Of a stretch of DNA of 34,105 nt, positions 15,076 to 32,759 are shown piece by piece. The stretch is from Promethearchaeota archaeon. Lineage in GTDB: Archaea; Asgardarchaeota; Lokiarchaeia; Sigyniarchaeales; SOKP01. Each line of letters opens with the position of its first letter. The first letter of the stretch is position 1. The translations under genes were made by a program, and so were the position numbers. Below the pieces are notes generated by a model, which was not told where the DNA came from, did no database searches, and saw only the letters and a program-made list of their open reading frames with translations. Where the stretch lies: positions 1 through 34,105 of the forward strand of contig JABCSY010000042.1 of NCBI GenBank assembly GCA_018238625.1, written 5' to 3'.

Positions 15076-15780
15076 ATGGATTTTCCTATCAAACAAATAG
15101 ACGATTTCTTTAATTCAATTGATACCTTCGAGGGAATCACTTCACTATGGGGCGATTTTGGTGTTGGTAAAACTACTTTATCGCTCCAAACAGCTTATAT
15201 TAACGCGTTAAGTGGCTCTAAGGTAATTTATATATATAGCAAACCAAATTTCCCTTACAATAAAATTGATTCTGTTATTGAAAAGAATTTAGATGAAGTT
15301 TTAGACAATATTTTGTTTAGCAAGGCAATAACTTTTGAAGTTTTATTAAACCTTGTTTTTAATTTAGAGTTTATCATTATTGATGATTTAAAAAACGGTG
15401 ATAGAACTTTTAATTTAGTTGTAATTGATTCAATAACCGATTTATATGGATTAGAATTACAACAAGATAAAAAAGGAAAAAATTTCATTCTGAATTATAA
15501 ATTGAATCAAATGTTAGCTAATTTAACTTTTTTAAATAAAAAATATCATGTTGATGTTTTAATTGTAAATGAACTTAGCAGAAAAACTCAAGAGGGCCAA
15601 ACTTATGAAGTGGAACGCGGTGGTAAAGTTATGGAATATTGGGTAAAAAATTCTATCAAAATTGAACGAACTGATAAACTTAACCACCGCAAGTTTTTTT
15701 TAATGAAAGGGAAAAGTAATAATTCGCTCGTGTTTTATACTAGATTAAATAAACAAGGTTTTGAAGAAGACCTCAAATGA
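15076..15780 (+). CDS. RadB-like RecA-family ATPase (core only)
   Basis: Walker A GDFGVGKT, KVIYI, Walker B VVIDSI, VLIVNE and GGKVMEYW. Confidence 0.8.
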   Translation: MDFPIKQIDDFFNSIDTFEGITSLWGDFGVGKTTLSLQTAYINALSGSKVIYIYSKPNFPYNKIDSVIEKNLDEVLDNILFSKAITFEVLLNLVFNLEFIIIDDLKNGDRTFNLVVIDSITDLYGLELQQDKKGKNFILNYKLNQMLANLTFLNKKYHVDVLIVNELSRKTQEGQTYEVERGGKVMEYWVKNSIKIERTDKLNHRKFFLMKGKSNNSLVFYTRLNKQGFEEDLK

Positions 15781-19516: not shown

Positions 19517-20314
19517 ATGAGATCAAACAAATCAAGCACGGTAAATCTAAAAAAATCATTGATTATTAGTACAAAAAAGATTGTTAGCGAAATCGAAAGA
19601 AATAAACGAGAAAAATTTAACATTTCAACTGGTTCAAAAAAAATTGACGATGTTATTGGCGGTGGATTTCATTCAAACAAAACCTATATAATTTTTGGGG
19701 CGAATAAAACTGGAAAAACTCAATTATGTCATCAATTATCTGTTCAAGCTTATCACAAATCCTTTAAGTTGATCTATTTAGACACAGAAAACACATTTCG
19801 CCCCGAAAGGATAAGTGTATTGGCAATAACACAAGAACTTGAAAGCGAAAAGATTCTAAAGAATATTTTAGTATCTAAAATCATGAGTAATCCCGCTTTT
19901 TTACTAAAATTAAACGAGATAGAAGACGTAATCAAACAAAATAATGCAAAAATCCTTATCATTGACTCTATCAATAACTATTATAGATTTGAGCTTAGTG
20001 ATAAAGAAGTTTCATCTTTTCGAGCTAAAACAAGATTTTTGAAGATTTTGGAAAAAATTAATAATCTTACTCGTAAATATAATTTAATTACAATTTTAAC
20101 CGCTCAAGTTGCTCCAAATTTTATTGAAAACTCAATTATAAAGGAATTTCCCGTAGGATTGCGGTATTTGAATCACTATTTCTCTGAAGTTTTATATTTA
20201 AATCGTAAAGAAAGTGGGATGGATTATATACATTTATTAAATTCTCATCAGTTTCCTGAAAAGAAAACACGTTATACGATTACGAATAAGGGAATAGAGG
20301 AATACAAAATTTGA
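19517..20314 (+). CDS. RadA/Rad51 paralog lacking the N-terminal HhH domain
   Basis: ISTGSKKIDDVIGGG, GANKTGKTQLCHQL, YLDTENTFRPERI and LIIDSI. Confidence 0.88.
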   Translation: MRSNKSSTVNLKKSLIISTKKIVSEIERNKREKFNISTGSKKIDDVIGGGFHSNKTYIIFGANKTGKTQLCHQLSVQAYHKSFKLIYLDTENTFRPERISVLAITQELESEKILKNILVSKIMSNPAFLLKLNEIEDVIKQNNAKILIIDSINNYYRFELSDKEVSSFRAKTRFLKILEKINNLTRKYNLITILTAQVAPNFIENSIIKEFPVGLRYLNHYFSEVLYLNRKESGMDYIHLLNSHQFPEKKTRYTITNKGIEEYKI

Positions 20315-21910: not shown

Positions 21911-22441
21911 TTACACATTAAACAATTTTTCTCCAAGTTTAACCGTAATCATAGCCTGTAATGCAGCGAAAGCAATTATAATTAAAAGAATTCCTACAAC
22001 TAAATACCTAATGGCGACACTCTTCTCATAAACATATTGAGATGCTTGGTATAAAAAAATAAAACCTAAAGAACACAAAAAAATAAAAATTGAAGCGACA
22101 ATTCCTTCAATTATAAATGATTCATTAATGTCAGGATAAAGAAACATAGGTGCACCCGTTTGTGGATCAGCTCCCATTGCTGGAGGGTTTCTAATTATTA
22201 AATACACAATTCCAGTTTGTAAAAGGAACAAAACAATATAAACCACTATCGCAGATATTGATTTTCCTGGAAGAGGCATACTAATTCTAGGTCTTTTTAT
22301 GTCAGGAAATAATAATTTAGGTTTTCTTAGTGTTTTACCAAAAACCCAAGGGGTTTTATCTTTGATTTTTTCAAAAACAGTCTCTGAACCAATAACTTCT
22401 TCTTTAGCAAGCTTTGTTTTAGTGCTTCTTTCCTTTTGCAT
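21911..22441 (-). CDS. Oligosaccharyltransferase accessory subunit OSTC/DC2 (OST3/OST6 family)-like, 3 TM
   Basis: GIVYLIIRNPPAMG...INESFIIEGIVASIFIFLCSLGFIFL resembles the OSTC pattern GIIYDVIVEPPSVG...[26 protein letters not shown] (recalled, aligned by eye). Confidence 0.8.
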   Translation of the reverse strand: MQKERSTKTKLAKEEVIGSETVFEKIKDKTPWVFGKTLRKPKLLFPDIKRPRISMPLPGKSISAIVVYIVLFLLQTGIVYLIIRNPPAMGADPQTGAPMFLYPDINESFIIEGIVASIFIFLCSLGFIFLYQASQYVYEKSVAIRYLVVGILLIIIAFAALQAMITVKLGEKLFNV

Positions 22442-24131: not shown

Positions 24132-25244
24132 ATGAGTAGTTGGAAGGATCTCTATTCTGAAGTTAAACAGCGTAAAATGGAAGCGCTTGATAAAAAAGAC
24201 GTTGTAAAGGCAGTCGAGAAGCACGGCAGAATACTCGCGGTTGAAGGTCGCTATGAAAAACCTAAAAAAGTAATAGATCACATGTATGCAGCAAAACATA
24301 TAACTATTAAACCTACTGATATCATGAAGTATAATTTAAGTGATTACGATGTCGTGTTGATAGGATGTCCGGGAGATAAAATCCCACATTCGGCTTTCCC
24401 TAAAATTAGTGAATATGTTTCGCTAAAAGGAGGGTGGATAATAACAACAGACTGGGCCATAAAACATATTGTGGAACCAATCTTTCCGGGATATATCCGA
24501 TGGAATAGAGAAAGAACTGCCGACGCTGTTGTTGCGTGTCAAATTCTTGAGCCAAATCACCCTTTCTTAGATGGAGTAATAAGTGAAATACAACAAGCAA
24601 AATGGCAAAAAGGATCGTCAAAAAACACTAAAAAAACTGAATTTAAGTGGTGGCTTGAAAATAGATCATTCCCAATTCAAGTTCTTAATCCATCCGTACG
24701 AGTATTAATCTCTTCTTTACGAATTCAGCAAAAATGGGGCGAAGCTCCCGTTTTATGTTATTTTGATCACGGAAAAACAGGAGGTCGCGTTATCCATTTA
24801 ATTTCTCATACACATCTACAAAAAGGCGGGGCAAAAGGTAAATACGCGTCAGCCTTAATATTAACAAATATTTTAGACGAGAAAGTTTCTTTAAAGATGG
24901 GACTATCTAAAAAACCTGCTCAAGGTTACGTTTCAAACTGGGAACAACCTCAACCTTATTCTCAGCATCAACAAACTGTTACGCCCTCTCAAGATAGTTC
25001 GTTTTTAACCCCTTCTAGTGCAAATACAGGGTTAACAGGGACTTCACAAATAGTTGAAGTGGACATAAATAGTAGTAATTTTTCTTTTGCAAATAAATGC
25101 AGTTATTGTGGCTATGATTTTGGTGATTACACAGGTAAAATATACATGTGCCAAGCATGTGGTACAAACTATCACGAAAACTGTCTTAACATGCAGATTA
25201 ATGAAGGAACATGTAAAAATTGCGGTAAAATATTGCTTTGGTAA
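24132..25244 (+). CDS. Class I GATase-like alpha/beta domain, Q/S/T/P-rich linker and C-terminal C4HC3 (PHD/RING-variant) finger
   Basis: YDVVLIGCPG and GGWIITTDWA in the N-terminal domain; C-x2-C-x13-C-x2-C-x4-H-x2-C-x9-C-x2-C at the C-terminus; SD GAGGT upstream. Confidence 0.75.
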   Translation: MSSWKDLYSEVKQRKMEALDKKDVVKAVEKHGRILAVEGRYEKPKKVIDHMYAAKHITIKPTDIMKYNLSDYDVVLIGCPGDKIPHSAFPKISEYVSLKGGWIITTDWAIKHIVEPIFPGYIRWNRERTADAVVACQILEPNHPFLDGVISEIQQAKWQKGSSKNTKKTEFKWWLENRSFPIQVLNPSVRVLISSLRIQQKWGEAPVLCYFDHGKTGGRVIHLISHTHLQKGGAKGKYASALILTNILDEKVSLKMGLSKKPAQGYVSNWEQPQPYSQHQQTVTPSQDSSFLTPSSANTGLTGTSQIVEVDINSSNFSFANKCSYCGYDFGDYTGKIYMCQACGTNYHENCLNMQINEGTCKNCGKILLW

Positions 25245-27844: not shown

Positions 27845-28966
27845 ATGGTTAATATTAAAGAACAATGGGCCTTCCATTCCAATGAACCGATTCTTGGGAT
27901 TGAAATAGGAGATGTCAATAATAACGGCCAAAATGAAATTATAGCATTCTCTAAATCTGGGAGACTTCTTATTATTTCACTAAGTGGTAAAAAATTAACC
28001 GAATTAGAAATTTCAGAGAATTCCTCTATTTGGCAAGCAAAAATATGCGATATTGATCGTGACAATAAAAACGAAGTTATTTTGGGGGGTTTAGATGGCT
28101 TATTAAGAGCGTTTAAATGTAGTCTCTCCTATGAATTAAAACCATTTTGGGCACACCAATTTGGTGCATCTATTAGCGGGTTCTTGTTTGAGGACATAAA
28201 CAATGATAACATAGAAGAACTTATCGCGTATTCGATAGATAAAAGTTTAAGAGTTTTAAACCCTATTAATGGGTCTTTAATATGGGGACAAATTTTTGAA
28301 GATGGTATAGGTGACGCTATAATTTATCGAGATTCTACTGACTTAAGAACAAAGCAAGTAATTGCATGTGGAAACGATGGATCACTCAGAGTTTTTAAGG
28401 GAAAAGATGGAGATTTAGTTTGGTTTAAACGATTTAAAGATAAAATTCGTTGCGTTTCGATTTTTAAATCAAAAAATAGAGAATTGGTTGTTTGTGGAGG
28501 GGATGATAAAAAACTTCACTTAATTGATAAACTTACTCAAGAAGATTTTAAATCAATTCAATTCGACGATTATGTCTGGAAATGCTTTTCATTTCTTCAT
28601 AACGACGAAAATTATTTATTAGTAAGTACTTATTCGTTTGAATACTTTGACGAGTCTTTTAAAATCGACGATATCGAATTCAGCTCAAAACTTACGTGTT
28701 TGAACCAAAAATTAGTAATTAAATGGGAGATTACACATATAAATACGGAATGTTTGATTCATACTAAAATAGGTTCGAATGGTTATATTGTTTTAGGAAC
28801 AACTAAGGGGAAATTGTTGATCATTGACGAAGTTTCTGGCAAAATTATTACTAAAATTCAAAAAAAATCGTGTTTAAACGACCTAAAATTCGATTTGAAT
28901 TCAAATATTTTAATTGCCTGTCACGATAACGGTTCAATATTCGCTTACTTTTTAGCGGAGTCTTAA
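27845..28966 (+). CDS. WD40/FG-GAP beta-propeller protein
   Basis: Repeats GDVNNNGQNEII, CDIDRDNKNEVILGGLDG and EDINNDNIEELI, plus ACGNDGSLRVF and CGGDDKKLHLI blades. Confidence 0.85.
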   Translation: MVNIKEQWAFHSNEPILGIEIGDVNNNGQNEIIAFSKSGRLLIISLSGKKLTELEISENSSIWQAKICDIDRDNKNEVILGGLDGLLRAFKCSLSYELKPFWAHQFGASISGFLFEDINNDNIEELIAYSIDKSLRVLNPINGSLIWGQIFEDGIGDAIIYRDSTDLRTKQVIACGNDGSLRVFKGKDGDLVWFKRFKDKIRCVSIFKSKNRELVVCGGDDKKLHLIDKLTQEDFKSIQFDDYVWKCFSFLHNDENYLLVSTYSFEYFDESFKIDDIEFSSKLTCLNQKLVIKWEITHINTECLIHTKIGSNGYIVLGTTKGKLLIIDEVSGKIITKIQKKSCLNDLKFDLNSNILIACHDNGSIFAYFLAES

Positions 28967-29004: not shown

Positions 29005-29745
29005 ATGTGTCGTATGTTTTTTCAGTGTTCGCTTGAACCCTTTCAAATCGATTTTAAAATTTTAAAGAAATTTGTAACCTCGTGTCATTGGCATTATTTA
29101 AGGAAGTACAACCTTTTTGGGCACCATGGATTGGGTTGGGGCTTCGCTTATATCTCTGAAGATGACAACAAACTCGTAATAAAGCGAGATATAACTCAAA
29201 TTTACCACGCGGACTGGAAAAACCTCACTAAGATTAAAACTCGTTTCCTTTTAGTCCACGCGAGAAAAACCCTCCCTTGGAAAAAGACCTTTAGAGACGT
29301 ACATCCTATCGATATTGGTGAGAAATATATCATAACTCATAACGGAATTATAAAAGGCTTTCCAGATGAAAAATTAAAAAACCCAAAATTGGAAAGAATT
29401 TATAGTAATACTAACTTGGACACTCGAAAATATCTATGTGCTATTATTGACGAACTACAAGAAGGTAAAAGTTTAAAGAATTCCTTGGAATCACTTTTTA
29501 AAGAGATTGAGATAGGTGCTGGCGCGAACGCGTTTCTATTTAATTCGCACATCTGCAATGTCATCACGAATCATAAAACTAATTTTAACGGCAGGCACCA
29601 CACCTTATTTTTAAGTAAAAATCAAAAAGAAATCCTTGTAAGCACTACTCCCTTAACTGAGAACGCGAAAGAAATTCCTAACTACTCTTTAATTCAAATT
29701 GAATTAAAAAATCTAAACCTGAATGCGATGAAATTAGAATTTTAG
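29005..29745 (+). CDS. Class II glutamine amidotransferase (YafJ/EgtC/Dug3-like Ntn hydrolase)
   Basis: N-terminal nucleophile M-C-R-M, GWGFAY, HARK, HP and THNGII. Confidence 0.88.
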   Translation: MCRMFFQCSLEPFQIDFKILKKFVTSCHWHYLRKYNLFGHHGLGWGFAYISEDDNKLVIKRDITQIYHADWKNLTKIKTRFLLVHARKTLPWKKTFRDVHPIDIGEKYIITHNGIIKGFPDEKLKNPKLERIYSNTNLDTRKYLCAIIDELQEGKSLKNSLESLFKEIEIGAGANAFLFNSHICNVITNHKTNFNGRHHTLFLSKNQKEILVSTTPLTENAKEIPNYSLIQIELKNLNLNAMKLEF

Positions 29746-29800: not shown

Positions 29801-30118
29801 CTACGCTCCCGATTCTTCTTCAGCCGCTAACTCCTCTTCCAATTCTTCGAGCGGAACTGGTGCTGGAGTTGTGAGCATCGAATATCCTATCCATATAGCA
29901 ATAACTGCTATTAATAATACCATAATCCAGAGTGGTAGAACAGTGAAAAATCTCCAATCGAGCCAATCGATACCAAATATTTGGAAGGTAATGTCCCAAT
30001 TTGGGTTTCCACCAAGAGTGCCAAACCATAAATCAATGACGCTTCCCATGGTATAGACTACTGCGATAAGGATACCAAGGAGCATAACGATTAGGCCAAT
30101 TATCTTATCTTTTGCCAT
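29801..30118 (-). CDS. Small 2-TM protein, DPM2-like
   Basis: MAKDKIIG-TM-YT...LP-TM-IGYSML, followed by a TTPAPVP and acidic tail; ATG 30118 is preceded by AAGGT. Confidence 0.65.
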   Translation of the reverse strand: MAKDKIIGLIVMLLGILIAVVYTMGSVIDLWFGTLGGNPNWDITFQIFGIDWLDWRFFTVLPLWIMVLLIAVIAIWIGYSMLTTPAPVPLEELEEELAAEEESGA

Positions 30119-30204
30119 TATCAATACCTTTGTTTGTATTAAGTTTTTAGTATATTTTTTCAAGCATATTTACATTGCTTAATATTATTTTTAAAATTAT
30201 ATTA

Positions 30205-30242
30205 AATTAAAACCATTCGTTAAGAATCACTTGGTTTTAATT
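30205..30242. repeat. Perfect 11-bp inverted repeat in a divergent promoter region
   Basis: aattaaaacca-N16-tggttttaatt. Confidence 0.6.
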
Positions 30243-30313
30243 GTGATGTTTCATAAATTGATAATATAAAGCGAAGAGAGTTCGAAAAATCGCGATTTTA
30301 AAGTGGTAAAATT

Positions 30314-31285
30314 ATGTTAAATAGCAACCAATATGTTCTAATTATTGGTTCGAGTAATATGGATTTAAACATATACTCGCAACGGTTACCGGAACTAGGT
30401 GAAACCGTAACTGGAGGTACATTTAAGCAATCCCTGGGAGGAAAAGGTGCGAATCAAGCGGTAGCTTCTGTGAGATCGGGGTCTAAAACTATTTTTATTG
30501 GTAAGGTCGGCATAGACTCGTACGGAGACCAAATGATTTCTCAGTTAAACAACGAAGGCGTGGACATAGAACATATTATAAGGGATCCTTACCAATCGAG
30601 CGGAGTCGCTTTTATAATGATAGATGAGGACGGAGAGAATATGATTAGTGTAGCGCCCGGGGCAAATTTCAATTTAACACCAGAAGACGTTCGAATAAAT
30701 TCCGAAGCCATTAAAAATGCTAACGCTTTGGTCGTTCAGATGGAAATTCCCATTGATTCAATTGAGGAAATTTTTAAAATAGCAGTTCAAGGGAAGGCTG
30801 TAAAAATTCTTAATCCTGCGCCTTTAAAACCAATTAGTTTATCAATTTTGAGAAATATTGATGTAATAGTCCCCAACGAGGGAGAATTACTACGTTTACA
30901 TTCGCTTTTAAATCTCAAAGAGTTAGTTGGCGAATCTAAAGGTAAAATTATTCAAGCTTCAAAAGATATTTCAAAATTAGGGGTTAAAACAATCGTAACT
31001 ACATTAGGCAGTCAAGGATGTATGATATATAACGCTGCAGAAGATAAAACTACTGAGATACCCGCTTTTAAGGTTAAACCCGTTGATACAGTAGGCGCTG
31101 GAGACTGTTTCAATGGAGTTTTAGCAAGTAAGCTAAATCAGGGGGATAATTTAATCACTTCGGTAAAGTACGCAACAGCAGCCGCCTCAATAGCAGTAAC
31201 AAGGAAAGGAGCGCAAGAATCAATGCCATTTATAGATGAAATTGAAGCACGCTTCAAAAAATATAAAGATATTTATACGAAATAG
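30314..31285 (+). CDS. rbsK: Ribokinase (PfkB family)
   Basis: GSSNMDL, GETV, GGKGANQAVA, QMEIP, NPAP, PNEGE and DTVGAGDCF. Confidence 0.95.
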   Translation: MLNSNQYVLIIGSSNMDLNIYSQRLPELGETVTGGTFKQSLGGKGANQAVASVRSGSKTIFIGKVGIDSYGDQMISQLNNEGVDIEHIIRDPYQSSGVAFIMIDEDGENMISVAPGANFNLTPEDVRINSEAIKNANALVVQMEIPIDSIEEIFKIAVQGKAVKILNPAPLKPISLSILRNIDVIVPNEGELLRLHSLLNLKELVGESKGKIIQASKDISKLGVKTIVTTLGSQGCMIYNAAEDKTTEIPAFKVKPVDTVGAGDCFNGVLASKLNQGDNLITSVKYATAAASIAVTRKGAQESMPFIDEIEARFKKYKDIYTK

Positions 31286-31305: not shown

Positions 31306-31980
31306 ATGTTAGAAGAGATAATTCAACCTGAGAAAGGCACAAATCTTAGAAAAAATGGGCAAGAAGAACTAACAATTCTGATAGATTCAAATGCTCTAAA
31401 AAAAATATTTCTTATAAATGGGACCAATTTTTTCACTCAAAATTTAAATGCGTCTAATCTAGTTGTAAAACCAAACGATTGTTACATGGTAATTAATAAA
31501 GGAGATGAAGAAATTAATGTTGAATATAGTATCGATATTTCTAGTCATATAATAATTTATGAACCTTATATGTATGAATCGTCCAAAAAAGAGATATTTG
31601 ACCCTATTTGGTTTAGCAAGAAATATAATGTTCCAGAGGGATACATCGACACTTTAGCTAAGTGGTACAGTATTAAATTCACATACGCTGATTATAATTT
31701 AATATTTATTAAACCGAAGATAGGAATCTCCATCCAAACTCATAAATTTAGAAGCGAAACGTGGAAAGTATTGAAAGGTAAACCAATAATAATTAACGGG
31801 AATAAAGTACATTATTTTGTTGAAAATGGAACAGAATTCTTAAACGCAAAAATGACTTACCACTCCGTTATAAATCCAAATAGCAATCCTGAACAATTTG
31901 TTTTAATAGAAGAAAAATGGAGTGGTAAATTCGAAGAAGAAGATATAATTAGAGCGTTTAACCCCAATAATTATCATTAA
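31306..31980 (+). CDS. Cupin protein with a type II mannose-6-phosphate isomerase-like C-terminal domain
   Basis: ISIQTHKFRSETW...YHSVIN...EEEDIIR matches the ManC/PMI-II cupin pattern SLQxHxxRxEHW...H...EDDIxR. Confidence 0.65.
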   Translation: MLEEIIQPEKGTNLRKNGQEELTILIDSNALKKIFLINGTNFFTQNLNASNLVVKPNDCYMVINKGDEEINVEYSIDISSHIIIYEPYMYESSKKEIFDPIWFSKKYNVPEGYIDTLAKWYSIKFTYADYNLIFIKPKIGISIQTHKFRSETWKVLKGKPIIINGNKVHYFVENGTEFLNAKMTYHSVINPNSNPEQFVLIEEKWSGKFEEEDIIRAFNPNNYH

Positions 31981-32213: not shown

Positions 32214-32759
32214 ATGGCTCCAAATGAAGAACAGAACGATGGAAAACAAGAAGAAACGAAAACAGAAGATGCTGCAAAAGAACCTTCTAAAGAACCTTCT
32301 AAAGAATCTGAAGAAGTAAAAGATACTAAAGAATTAGATCTTGCTAAAGAAAGAGATCGTCTTAAATTTCATTATAGAGGCCACACATTAGACCAATTAA
32401 AGAGAATGAATATGGACGAGTTTATTCTATTGCTACCGGCACGAGCGCGGAGATCATTAAAAAGAGGACTACCGCCTAGACAGAGAAAGCTCCTTGAAAG
32501 ATTAAGACGAGCATACAGAGCCAAAAAAAGAGGTAAAGATCTTCTTACGCGAACACATGTGAGAGACATGTTGATTTTTCCTGAGATGGTAGGTTTGAAA
32601 ATAGGCGTCTATAACGGAAAACAATATGAAATTGTTGATGTAAAACCTGAAATGATTGGACATTACTTAGGGGAGTTTTCACTCACTAGAAGGCGCGTTC
32701 AACATGGTTCTCCCGGAATTGGAGCCACACGTTCAAGTAAATATGTTCCTTTAAAGTAA
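32214..32759 (+). CDS. rps19: 30S ribosomal protein uS19 (archaeal S19P) with acidic N-terminal extension
   Basis: [34 protein letters not shown] and [14 protein letters not shown]. Confidence 0.98.
32277..32309 (+). repeat. In-frame 12-bp tandem repeat ([11 protein letters not shown])
   Basis: aaagaaccttct x2 followed by aaagaatct. Confidence 0.85.

Follow-up and report, generated by a model that had tools for sequence, protein, structure and literature searches.

A strongly conserved membrane hairpin of Asgard archaea with probable homology to the eukaryotic DPM2/PIG-P family and a possible role in dolichyl-phosphate hexose synthesis

Introduction

DPM2 and PIG-P are usually treated as accessory subunits of the eukaryotic endoplasmic reticulum (ER), and DPM2 forms a complex with DPM1 and DPM3, in which it enhances the synthesis of dolichyl-phosphate mannose (Dol-P-Man) and in which, in humans, DPM3 bridges DPM1 and DPM2. 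The question we ask here is whether a protein of this kind is also encoded by a Promethearchaeota archaeon, in a 34,105-nucleotide stretch of DNA (contig JABCSY010000042.1 of assembly GCA_018238625.1, all of which is referred to below as the window). A first-pass annotation made from the sequence had labelled a 105-residue open reading frame (ORF) at positions 29801–30118 of the minus strand as a DPM2-like regulatory subunit of the Dol-P-Man synthase (DPMS) and of the GPI-GlcNAc transferase (GPI-GnT). We find that this ORF is a real gene for a strongly conserved two-helix membrane protein, referred to as the hairpin protein, which on the evidence of profile comparisons is very probably homologous to the eukaryotic DPM2/PIG-P family, and for which a function beside a DPM1-like glycosyltransferase can be proposed more tentatively.

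The same annotation had described DPM2 as regarded as eukaryotic, a description which is no longer fully true as archaeal roots have already been published for the DPM2/PIGP family: in its account of ER families ‘of archaeal origin’, a 2025 paper in Nature (PMC12872463) includes ‘DPM2 and PIGP’ as a duplication that preceded the last eukaryotic common ancestor. Our full-text literature search turned up no paper describing the archaeal DPM2/PIG-P-type protein itself, and the window protein is a divergent and so far unannotated member of a known family. Current views are not overturned by what follows, the archaeal origin of the family having been stated in that account. The Lokiarchaeial versions, which are now ‘hypothetical’, can however be annotated, and the archaeal hairpin offers a concrete and testable prokaryotic model for the poorly understood DPM2 and PIG-P subunits.

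Results and discussion

The hairpin gene and its product

The coding sequence runs from an ATG at 30118 to a stop codon at 29801–29803, and its translation contains both of the protein stretches quoted in the first-pass annotation. A TTG further upstream at 30163 is a possible alternative start that would add 15 residues, but we take the ATG to be the start because the M-x-K-D-K N-terminus of the family sits at this position in 47 aligned family representatives; an AGGT is also found about 9 nt 5' of the ATG on the minus strand. This is not a chance ORF. In a word-indexed database search 623 relatives came up at E ≤ 0.01, and exhaustive searching with HMMER gave 70 clusters (formed at 50% identity) at E ≤ 0.001. 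The family profile also has matches in 277 of the 301 genomes sampled from the phylum, including 87 of the 90 that are at least 90% complete. Among the 120 database matches listed, identities range from 70 to 92%, and where these proteins are named they are called ‘hypothetical protein’, as had been anticipated, and come from metagenome-assembled genomes of Promethearchaeota, Lokiarchaeota, Hermod-, Thor- and Hodarchaeota. Among four sequencing runs compared with the window, a single 154 nt metatranscriptome contig from one run maps inside the ORF (29821–29971, with 3 differences), and in the other RNA run there is cover only on the neighbouring gene and an A+T-rich spacer; the contig is a weak hint of expression and does not by itself demonstrate transcription, and no meaning attaches to stretches that lack cover.

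AlphaFold2, supplied with a 47-row alignment, predicts a confident hairpin (mean pLDDT 86.8) with helices at residues 2–35, 55–83 and 90–104. Helix 1 (30014–30115, minus strand, as for all parts of the gene) begins with a K-D-K-x-x-G entry and has Y-T near its end, and is followed by a variable inter-helix loop (residues 36–54; 29957–30013) in which the model places a short beta hairpin. Helix 2 (29870–29956) carries P62 at its start and W-I-G-Y-S-M-L towards its end, and the remaining residues 84–105 (29804–29869) form a conserved tail, T-T-P-P-P-x-P-x-E, followed by an acidic stretch which is modelled as the third helix. The landmarks that had been likened to human DPM2 are all present and fall on conserved positions of the 47-row alignment as predicted: G8 of the D4-x-x-x-G8 entry is invariant, helix 1 closes with Y21-T22 as in the family consensus, P62, I73, W76, I77 and G78 are kept in at least 90% of sequences, and the I-x-Y-x-ML ending is seen in residues I77-G-Y-S-M-L82 of the window protein, close to the end of helix 2. 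The proline-rich motif and the acidic stretch C-terminal to helix 2 had gone unmentioned. The side of the membrane on which this tail lies is probably cytoplasmic, and the tail is a candidate docking element.

Homology to DPM2 and PIG-P

We compared the hairpin family with DPM2 and PIG-P through Pfam profiles rather than individual eukaryotic sequences, using the Pfam gathering scores of 27.3 bits for DPM2 (PF07297), 39.3 bits for PIG-P (PF08510) and 28.4 bits for Phage_holin_3_6 (PF07332) as cut-offs. Each of the DPM2 and PIG-P profiles matches 35 of 47 family representatives at E ≤ 1 (best E-values of 1.7e-8 and 2.3e-10, respectively), with the gathering score passed by 6 of 46 representatives for DPM2 and by 2 of 46 for PIG-P. 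The matches are colinear from end to end, covering positions 2–71 of the 75 in the DPM2 profile and 3–101 of the 121 in that of PIG-P. A six-frame survey of the 301 genomes with the DPM2 profile gave 59 matching genomes at E ≤ 0.001 and 31 over the cut-off, the latter at loci that are also picked out by the family profile, and at the same E-value neither profile matched any of the 14 control genomes. The five best survey matches score 54.3, 44.6, 42, 42 and 40.7 bits (in G004:C12, G024:C7, G013:C1, G001:C1 and G035:C2; here and below, codes of this kind are our own handles for genomes, contigs, loci and families) and are orthologues of the window gene, since they lie inside matches of the family profile. 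On called ORFs, the G004 orthologue scores 54.2 bits (E 1.8e-14) and another 44.8 bits, and the former shares 37% identity with the window protein over 99 residues, end to end. The same genes are found with PIG-P, though more weakly when measured against its cut-off, in 28 of the 301 genomes at E ≤ 1e-5 and in one over the cut-off, and three relatives pass the PIG-P cut-off with 40.8, 40.1 and 39.8 bits, the second of these being a further orthologue. The DPM2-like homology claimed by the first-pass annotation is thus borne out across the family and goes beyond that of a generic transmembrane (TM) hairpin, with the window protein itself remaining below threshold.

Several results weigh against membership when the window protein is taken alone. 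Its best Pfam match is PIG-P at 18.9 bits (E 0.0014, with residues 6–96 on profile positions 4–83), and DPM2 gives 13.2 bits (E 0.11) over the helix 2 part only, so that both are below the cut-offs, even though these two families are among its three best Pfam matches. In the six-frame surveys with both profiles, none of the 68 genomes of the window's own taxonomic family gave a match; the visible difference between this family and the orthologues that pass the DPM2 cut-off is the longer inter-helix loop. Since the window protein and its taxonomic family are sub-threshold, membership rests on transitive homology. Phage_holin_3_6, an actinobacterial holin family, is matched weakly by 30 of 47 members (best 25.8 bits, with 15.6 for the window protein, all below the cut-off), and this similarity shows that part of the signal is that of a generic hairpin; however, generic similarity does not account for 54 bits. 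We rejected an identity as a phage holin as the gathering score is not reached and this is a near-universal chromosomal gene found beside housekeeping genes.

An explanation by convergence would hold that a generic two-helix hairpin happens to have a composition matching the DPM2 and PIG-P profiles. The weak scores of the window protein and the holin similarity would fit this, as would the matches of the two profiles in 9 and 11 of the 14 control genomes when the threshold is relaxed to E ≤ 10, and the lack of significant hairpin matches in a Foldseek comparison of the model with the PDB (none at E ≤ 0.001, the best hairpin match having an E-value of 0.73). Against this stand the orthologue at 54 bits that spans DPM2 positions 2–71, the empty controls at E ≤ 0.001 for both profiles, the fact that the same genes match both of the sister families, and the conserved positions found where they had been predicted. 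An independent large-scale study also puts archaeal sequences in the DPM2/PIGP family (PMC12872463). We consider convergence to be already largely refuted and extremely improbable.

The window protein resembles DPM2 in its small size and in its hairpin of two TM helices (as judged from the AlphaFold2 model for the window protein), and the family match keeps the same order throughout, starting at the D-x-x-x-G entry of helix 1 and running until helix 2 ends. Orthologues in other Asgard families exceed the cut-off with scores that include 54.2, 44.8 and 33.5 bits. The window protein differs from DPM2 in its longer inter-helix loop, with a score of 13.2 bits, and in its T-T-P-P-P-x-P-x-E and acidic tail, which lie beyond the end of the 75-position profile. 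In the case of PIG-P, the match in relatives extends past helix 2 into the tail, as far as profile positions 98–101, but the cut-off is passed in only one of the 301 genomes compared with 31 for DPM2.

In favour of homology, one nearby cluster in the ESM Atlas carries PF07297 on 11% of its members. Other searches gave little. When solved structures were searched by sequence with the protein and two family profiles, neither a DPM2 nor a PIG-P chain came up, the best matches being glycophorin-B, cytochrome b559 and a pilin, all with E > 0.07; and an NCBIfam search of the window protein returned only a chance-level match. We note that in a six-frame PIG-P search of the genome from which the window comes, the best match was not the window ORF but C201:32280–32594 on the plus strand of another contig (a stretch within a 265-residue open frame, locus L001; 19.7 bits, E 0.0019). 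This match is probably noise, as 11 of the 14 control genomes also match PIG-P at E ≤ 10.

Distribution among the archaea

The hairpin gene is near-universal and usually single-copy in the sampled Asgard genomes. We also undertook a pattern scan with the motif W-I-G-[WY]-T-[MI]-[LA]-T-T in one genome per prokaryotic species, which gave at least 507 confirmed loci, of which 80 were kept for study. The titles of these 80 loci name Thor-, Hermod- and Baldrarchaeota, Promethearchaeota, Bathyarchaeota or Bathyarchaeia, Thermoproteota, Nitrososphaerota, Methanomethylicota and one Methanocella. The family is found both in the great majority of the Asgard genomes and in Bathyarchaeia, Methanomethylicota, Nitrososphaerota and a Methanocella.

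A proposed function with DPM1-like glycosyltransferases

We propose that the hairpin may be the small membrane subunit of a dolichyl-phosphate hexose (Dol-P-hexose) synthase, in which the catalytic subunit would be a DPM1-like family 2 glycosyltransferase (GT2). The catalytic GT2 would have no membrane hairpin of its own and the hairpin would be supplied in trans, where it would stand in for the fused C-terminal TM helices of GtrB, ArnC and the Pyrococcus DPMS. With both ends of the protein probably facing the cytoplasm, the conserved proline-rich acidic tail might keep the catalytic subunit in place at the membrane or stabilise it there, beside dolichyl phosphate. The archaeal hairpin would then be the pre-duplication form, co-orthologous to DPM2 and PIG-P, and a split Dol-P-Man synthase, with a soluble catalytic subunit and a small membrane subunit, may predate the eukaryotes. 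The label of ‘regulatory subunit of DPM synthase / GPI-GnT’ given by the first-pass annotation is plausible as an inference. For the explanation as a whole, that of an archaeal DPM2/PIG-P-family hairpin serving a DPM1-like Dol-P-hexose synthase, we find the case for and against finely balanced, and the particular partner and mechanism are put forward tentatively, as a possibility which falls somewhat short of that.

The reading as a DPM1-like synthase subunit fits the family relationship described above, the absence of GPI-GnT subunits among our matches, the set of GT2 enzymes without TM helices, and a sugar-activation neighbourhood. No match was found in the source genome (97.9% complete, with 7.6% contamination) to PIG-A (PF08288), PIG-C/GPI2 (PF06432) or PIG-Q/Gpi1 (PF05024), in searches that had no positive control, GPI2 and Gpi1 being likewise unmatched in every control genome. 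This genome has only four or five GT2 genes, the best solved relatives of which are GtrB, Pyrococcus DPMS and ArnC, that is, the polyprenyl-phosphate glycosyltransferase class. None of its DPM1/GtrB-type GT2s has the C-terminal TM hairpin that is found in GtrB, PfDPMS and ArnC.

The text of Gandini et al. 2017 (PMC5526996) on the classification of these enzymes distinguishes three classes of DPM synthase, and the authors note there a possible topological correspondence of DPM2 and DPM3 with the pair of TM-helix dimers in PfDPMS. In the passage of a 2026 paper (PMC12992685) that concerns the membrane subunits, those of eukaryotes are expected to differ in structure from the TM domain of type III. 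The role that we propose is shared with the fused hairpins of the polyprenyl-phosphate GT2s (Pyrococcus type-III DPMS, 5mlz; GtrB, 5ekp; ArnC, 9bhe), where TM hairpins lie under a GT-A catalytic domain whose substrate is a polyprenyl phosphate. The ArnC hairpin was ranked third by Foldseek for the window protein model (TM-score 0.49, root-mean-square deviation 2.9 over 77 columns, with a non-significant E-value of 3.2), and no significant score was obtained when the family profile was run with hmmsearch against the fused hairpins of Asgard GT2 relatives.

A number of findings count against a DPM1-like GT2 partner. The best conserved GT2 of the source genome, a 240-residue protein (C164:21868–22590), has a match at E ≤ 1e-25 in only 34 of the 61 genomes searched, most of the frames having 225–280 residues, compared with 277 of 301 for the hairpin gene, and some of its relatives have fused TM hairpins of their own, so that the co-occurrence of the hairpin with any single GT2 lineage is imperfect. 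No GT2 gene adjoins the hairpin gene in the 80 loci or in five further loci, and no GT2 fusion was found among the longer hairpin proteins, where of two matches one has helix-hairpin-helix (HhH)-type domains and the other looks like an assembly artefact; this is weak evidence. DPM3 (PF08285) was found in none of 151 genomes of the phylum and not in the source genome, in a search that had no positive control. The neighbouring genes discussed below encode soluble sugar-phosphate enzymes with most pairs on opposite strands, and their synteny may be inherited rather than selected, as related genomes are not independent. A complex prediction for the 240-residue GT2 (with a 14-row alignment) and the hairpin gave an ipSAE of 0.00 in both runs with controls absent, and speaks neither for nor against binding.

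Amongst the relatives of this GT2, those at loci L134–L136, L139 and L145 (genomes G041, G050, G058, G026 and G025) are proteins of 390–419 residues in which TM hairpins flank the GT2 domain on both sides, and those at L152, L153 and L161 have the C-terminal hairpin only; the phylum therefore contains forms of this GT2 with no, two and four TM helices. The N-terminal hairpin of the four-TM forms (L134–L136 and L145) aligns colinearly with the family profile but weakly, with a best domain score of 7.6 bits and high compositional bias, and we have not counted this as evidence.

We also considered two other GT2s of the source genome as universal partners and rejected both. The C63 GT2, whose gene is flanked by those for an LPG_synthase_TM protein and a protein with 8 TM helices, was found in 3 of 61 genomes at E ≤ 1e-30 and is not conserved even within the genus, and the identity of the C185 GT2 falls to 30–40% outside the family. 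The latter adjoins an NAD-epimerase-like gene and a gene for a 767-residue, 15-TM protein, which is taken to be a putative AglB/STT3-like or other GT-C enzyme. It should be noted that the protein sequence encoded by C28:1–228 shares 91% identity with the end of the C185 GT2 and that both contigs begin with near-identical ORFs. This likeness suggests that the contigs are duplicates or strain variants, which agrees with the estimated contamination of 7.6%.

Genomic neighbourhood of the hairpin gene

In the window, the hairpin gene and a divergent gene for a PfkB-family sugar kinase (30314–31285, plus strand; PF00294, E 5.2e-68) share an A+T-rich intergenic region (30119–30313). The kinase gene is followed by a gene for a protein with a mannose-6-phosphate isomerase C-terminal (cupin) domain (31306–31980, plus strand; PF01050, 39.6 bits with a cut-off of 23.6) and by that for ribosomal protein S19 (32214–32759, plus strand), one of the S19-L22-S3 ribosomal genes near the hairpin gene; S19 is found close to the DPM2-like gene in other Asgard lineages as well. 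On the other side, the convergent neighbour encodes a class-II glutamine amidotransferase-like protein (29005–29745, plus strand; PF13230, 28.2 bits). The S19 ORF of the window has 181 residues, with about 80 K/E-rich residues before the S19 domain (residues 80–164), and the S19 proteins encoded beside DPM2-like genes elsewhere have 131–160 residues. The long ORF is either a real extension or a start that was called too early.

We called and clustered the ORFs of the 80 loci, in 70 of which the target gene was recovered by the caller. The flanks contain phosphoglucomutase/phosphomannomutase (PGM/PMM) in 20 loci, S19 in 23, and a GMPP-like NTP-transferase in 10 (at a median of 158 nt), and a UDP-GlcNAc 2-epimerase gene lies directly upstream of the DPM2-like gene in two. 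In the Thor-type arrangement the order is ETF-alpha/beta, DPM2-like, PGM/PMM, TPR and S19, and in the Hermod-type arrangement GT4, two DUF1616 genes, the GMPP-like NTP-transferase (with the UDP-GlcNAc 2-epimerase in two loci), DPM2-like, HypC, RsmB, NIP7 and P1/P2. Bathyarchaeia have an AdoHcy hydrolase gene followed by the DPM2-like gene, with the NTP-transferase adjoining in two loci, and in Methanomethylicota the gene stands between those for NAD synthase and triosephosphate isomerase. Among the Asgard families, the DPM2-like gene is followed by those for a SIS isomerase, PGM/PMM and S19 in f5, is preceded on the same strand by S19 and PGM/PMM in f6, is followed by a GDP-mannose-dehydratase/epimerase-family gene in f8, and has a GlmS-like neighbour in f22. 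The hairpin gene thus accompanies several different hexose-activation steps in several lineages.

This context can be set against a reading in which the hairpin is a homologue with a role outside lipid-linked sugars, for example one in which its acidic tail tethers cytoplasmic proteins, such as those that bind nucleic acids, to the membrane. Ribosomal protein genes adjoin the hairpin gene in several lineages (S19, or P1/P2 in another lineage), some members are named ‘predicted DNA-binding transcriptional regulator’, and C-terminal HhH fusions (HHH_5 and DUF4332) are found in two proteins of the Asgard family f16 and in P0193. However, sugar-pathway genes make up a broader context than ribosomal genes do, the names in the source records were assigned automatically and disagree with one another (EscU is the name given to one member), and the fusions are rare, with two longer proteins found. 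We therefore regard a tethering role as very unlikely. The fusions themselves place HHH_5 after the acidic tail (L164:1492–2091 on the plus strand, L165:1333–1785 on the minus strand, and P0193, which also has DUF4332), which is odd for a glycosylation subunit.

Paralogues in one Asgard family and a wider range of partners

Two hairpin paralogues are present in each of the five f16 genomes examined (G054, G148, G169, G181 and G247; loci L162–L172 and L178–L183), with three matches in G247. Paralogue A matches DPM2 best, at 33.5, 32.9 and 31.4 bits, and paralogue B matches PIG-P best, at 30.1 and 28.8 bits and so below the cut-off, with two of four B copies having no Pfam match. In three of the five genomes, a PlsC-type acyltransferase gene (PF01553, 80–86 bits) comes after paralogue B on the same strand, with an alpha/beta hydrolase gene between them in two.

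This coupling suggests a wider partner range than a GT2 and is a further point against the DPM1-like synthase. It brings in the alternative that the hairpin is a true DPM2/PIG-P homologue which works as a general small membrane adaptor for peripheral lipid-acting enzymes, with a GT4, an acyltransferase or OST/AglB as examples of the partner. The pair of paralogues is in keeping with this, as are the GT4 gene some 4 kb away in the Hermod-type arrangement and an OST3/OST6-family gene 7.4 kb away in the window, and the same eukaryotic fold reportedly serves both DPM synthase and GPI-GnT, as Watanabe et al. are said to have found in 2000. The acyltransferase link is nevertheless confined to one family and concerns the paralogue rather than the orthologue of the window gene, PIG-A, GPI2 and Gpi1 went unmatched in the source genome, and the commonest neighbours of the hairpin gene are hexose-phosphate and nucleotide-sugar enzymes. 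On balance we judge the general adaptor to be somewhat unlikely.

In its broadest form, the DPM2/PIG-P hairpin would be an ancient archaeal all-purpose adaptor that recruits lipid-acting enzymes without TM helices, of which one copy would serve a DPM1-like synthase without DPM3 in most Asgard archaea, and which in f16 would have split into a DPM2-like and a PIG-P-like copy, the latter operon-coupled to a PlsC-type ester-lipid acyltransferase. This is a speculative scheme that we think unlikely. If it were true, the subfunctionalisation that led to the eukaryotic DPM2 and PIG-P would have begun inside the Asgard archaea, as would a connection with lipid synthesis of the bacterial type.

Other genes of the window

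The OST3/OST6-family protein mentioned above is encoded at 21911–22441 on the minus strand (176 residues; PF04756, E 1.6e-13 on the C-terminal membrane part), and is a known Asgard ‘eukaryotic signature’ protein. A 373-residue beta-propeller protein (27845–28966, plus strand) passes the cut-offs of eukaryote-type propeller families, with 32.5 bits for the BBS7 beta-propeller, 29.9 for BBS2_Mid and 30.3 for Itfg2 (cut-off 27 in each case), and also passes that of FG-GAP_3. The C-terminal Cys-rich region of a 370-residue protein (24132–25244, plus strand) resembles C1 (phorbol ester/diacylglycerol-binding) at 23 bits and Prok-RING_1 at 21.3 bits, both below the cut-off. Two Rad51/RadA-family paralogues are encoded 4 kb apart on the plus strand (15076–15780 and 19517–20314), one of them giving a short and weak match of 47 bits and one a full match of 129 bits.

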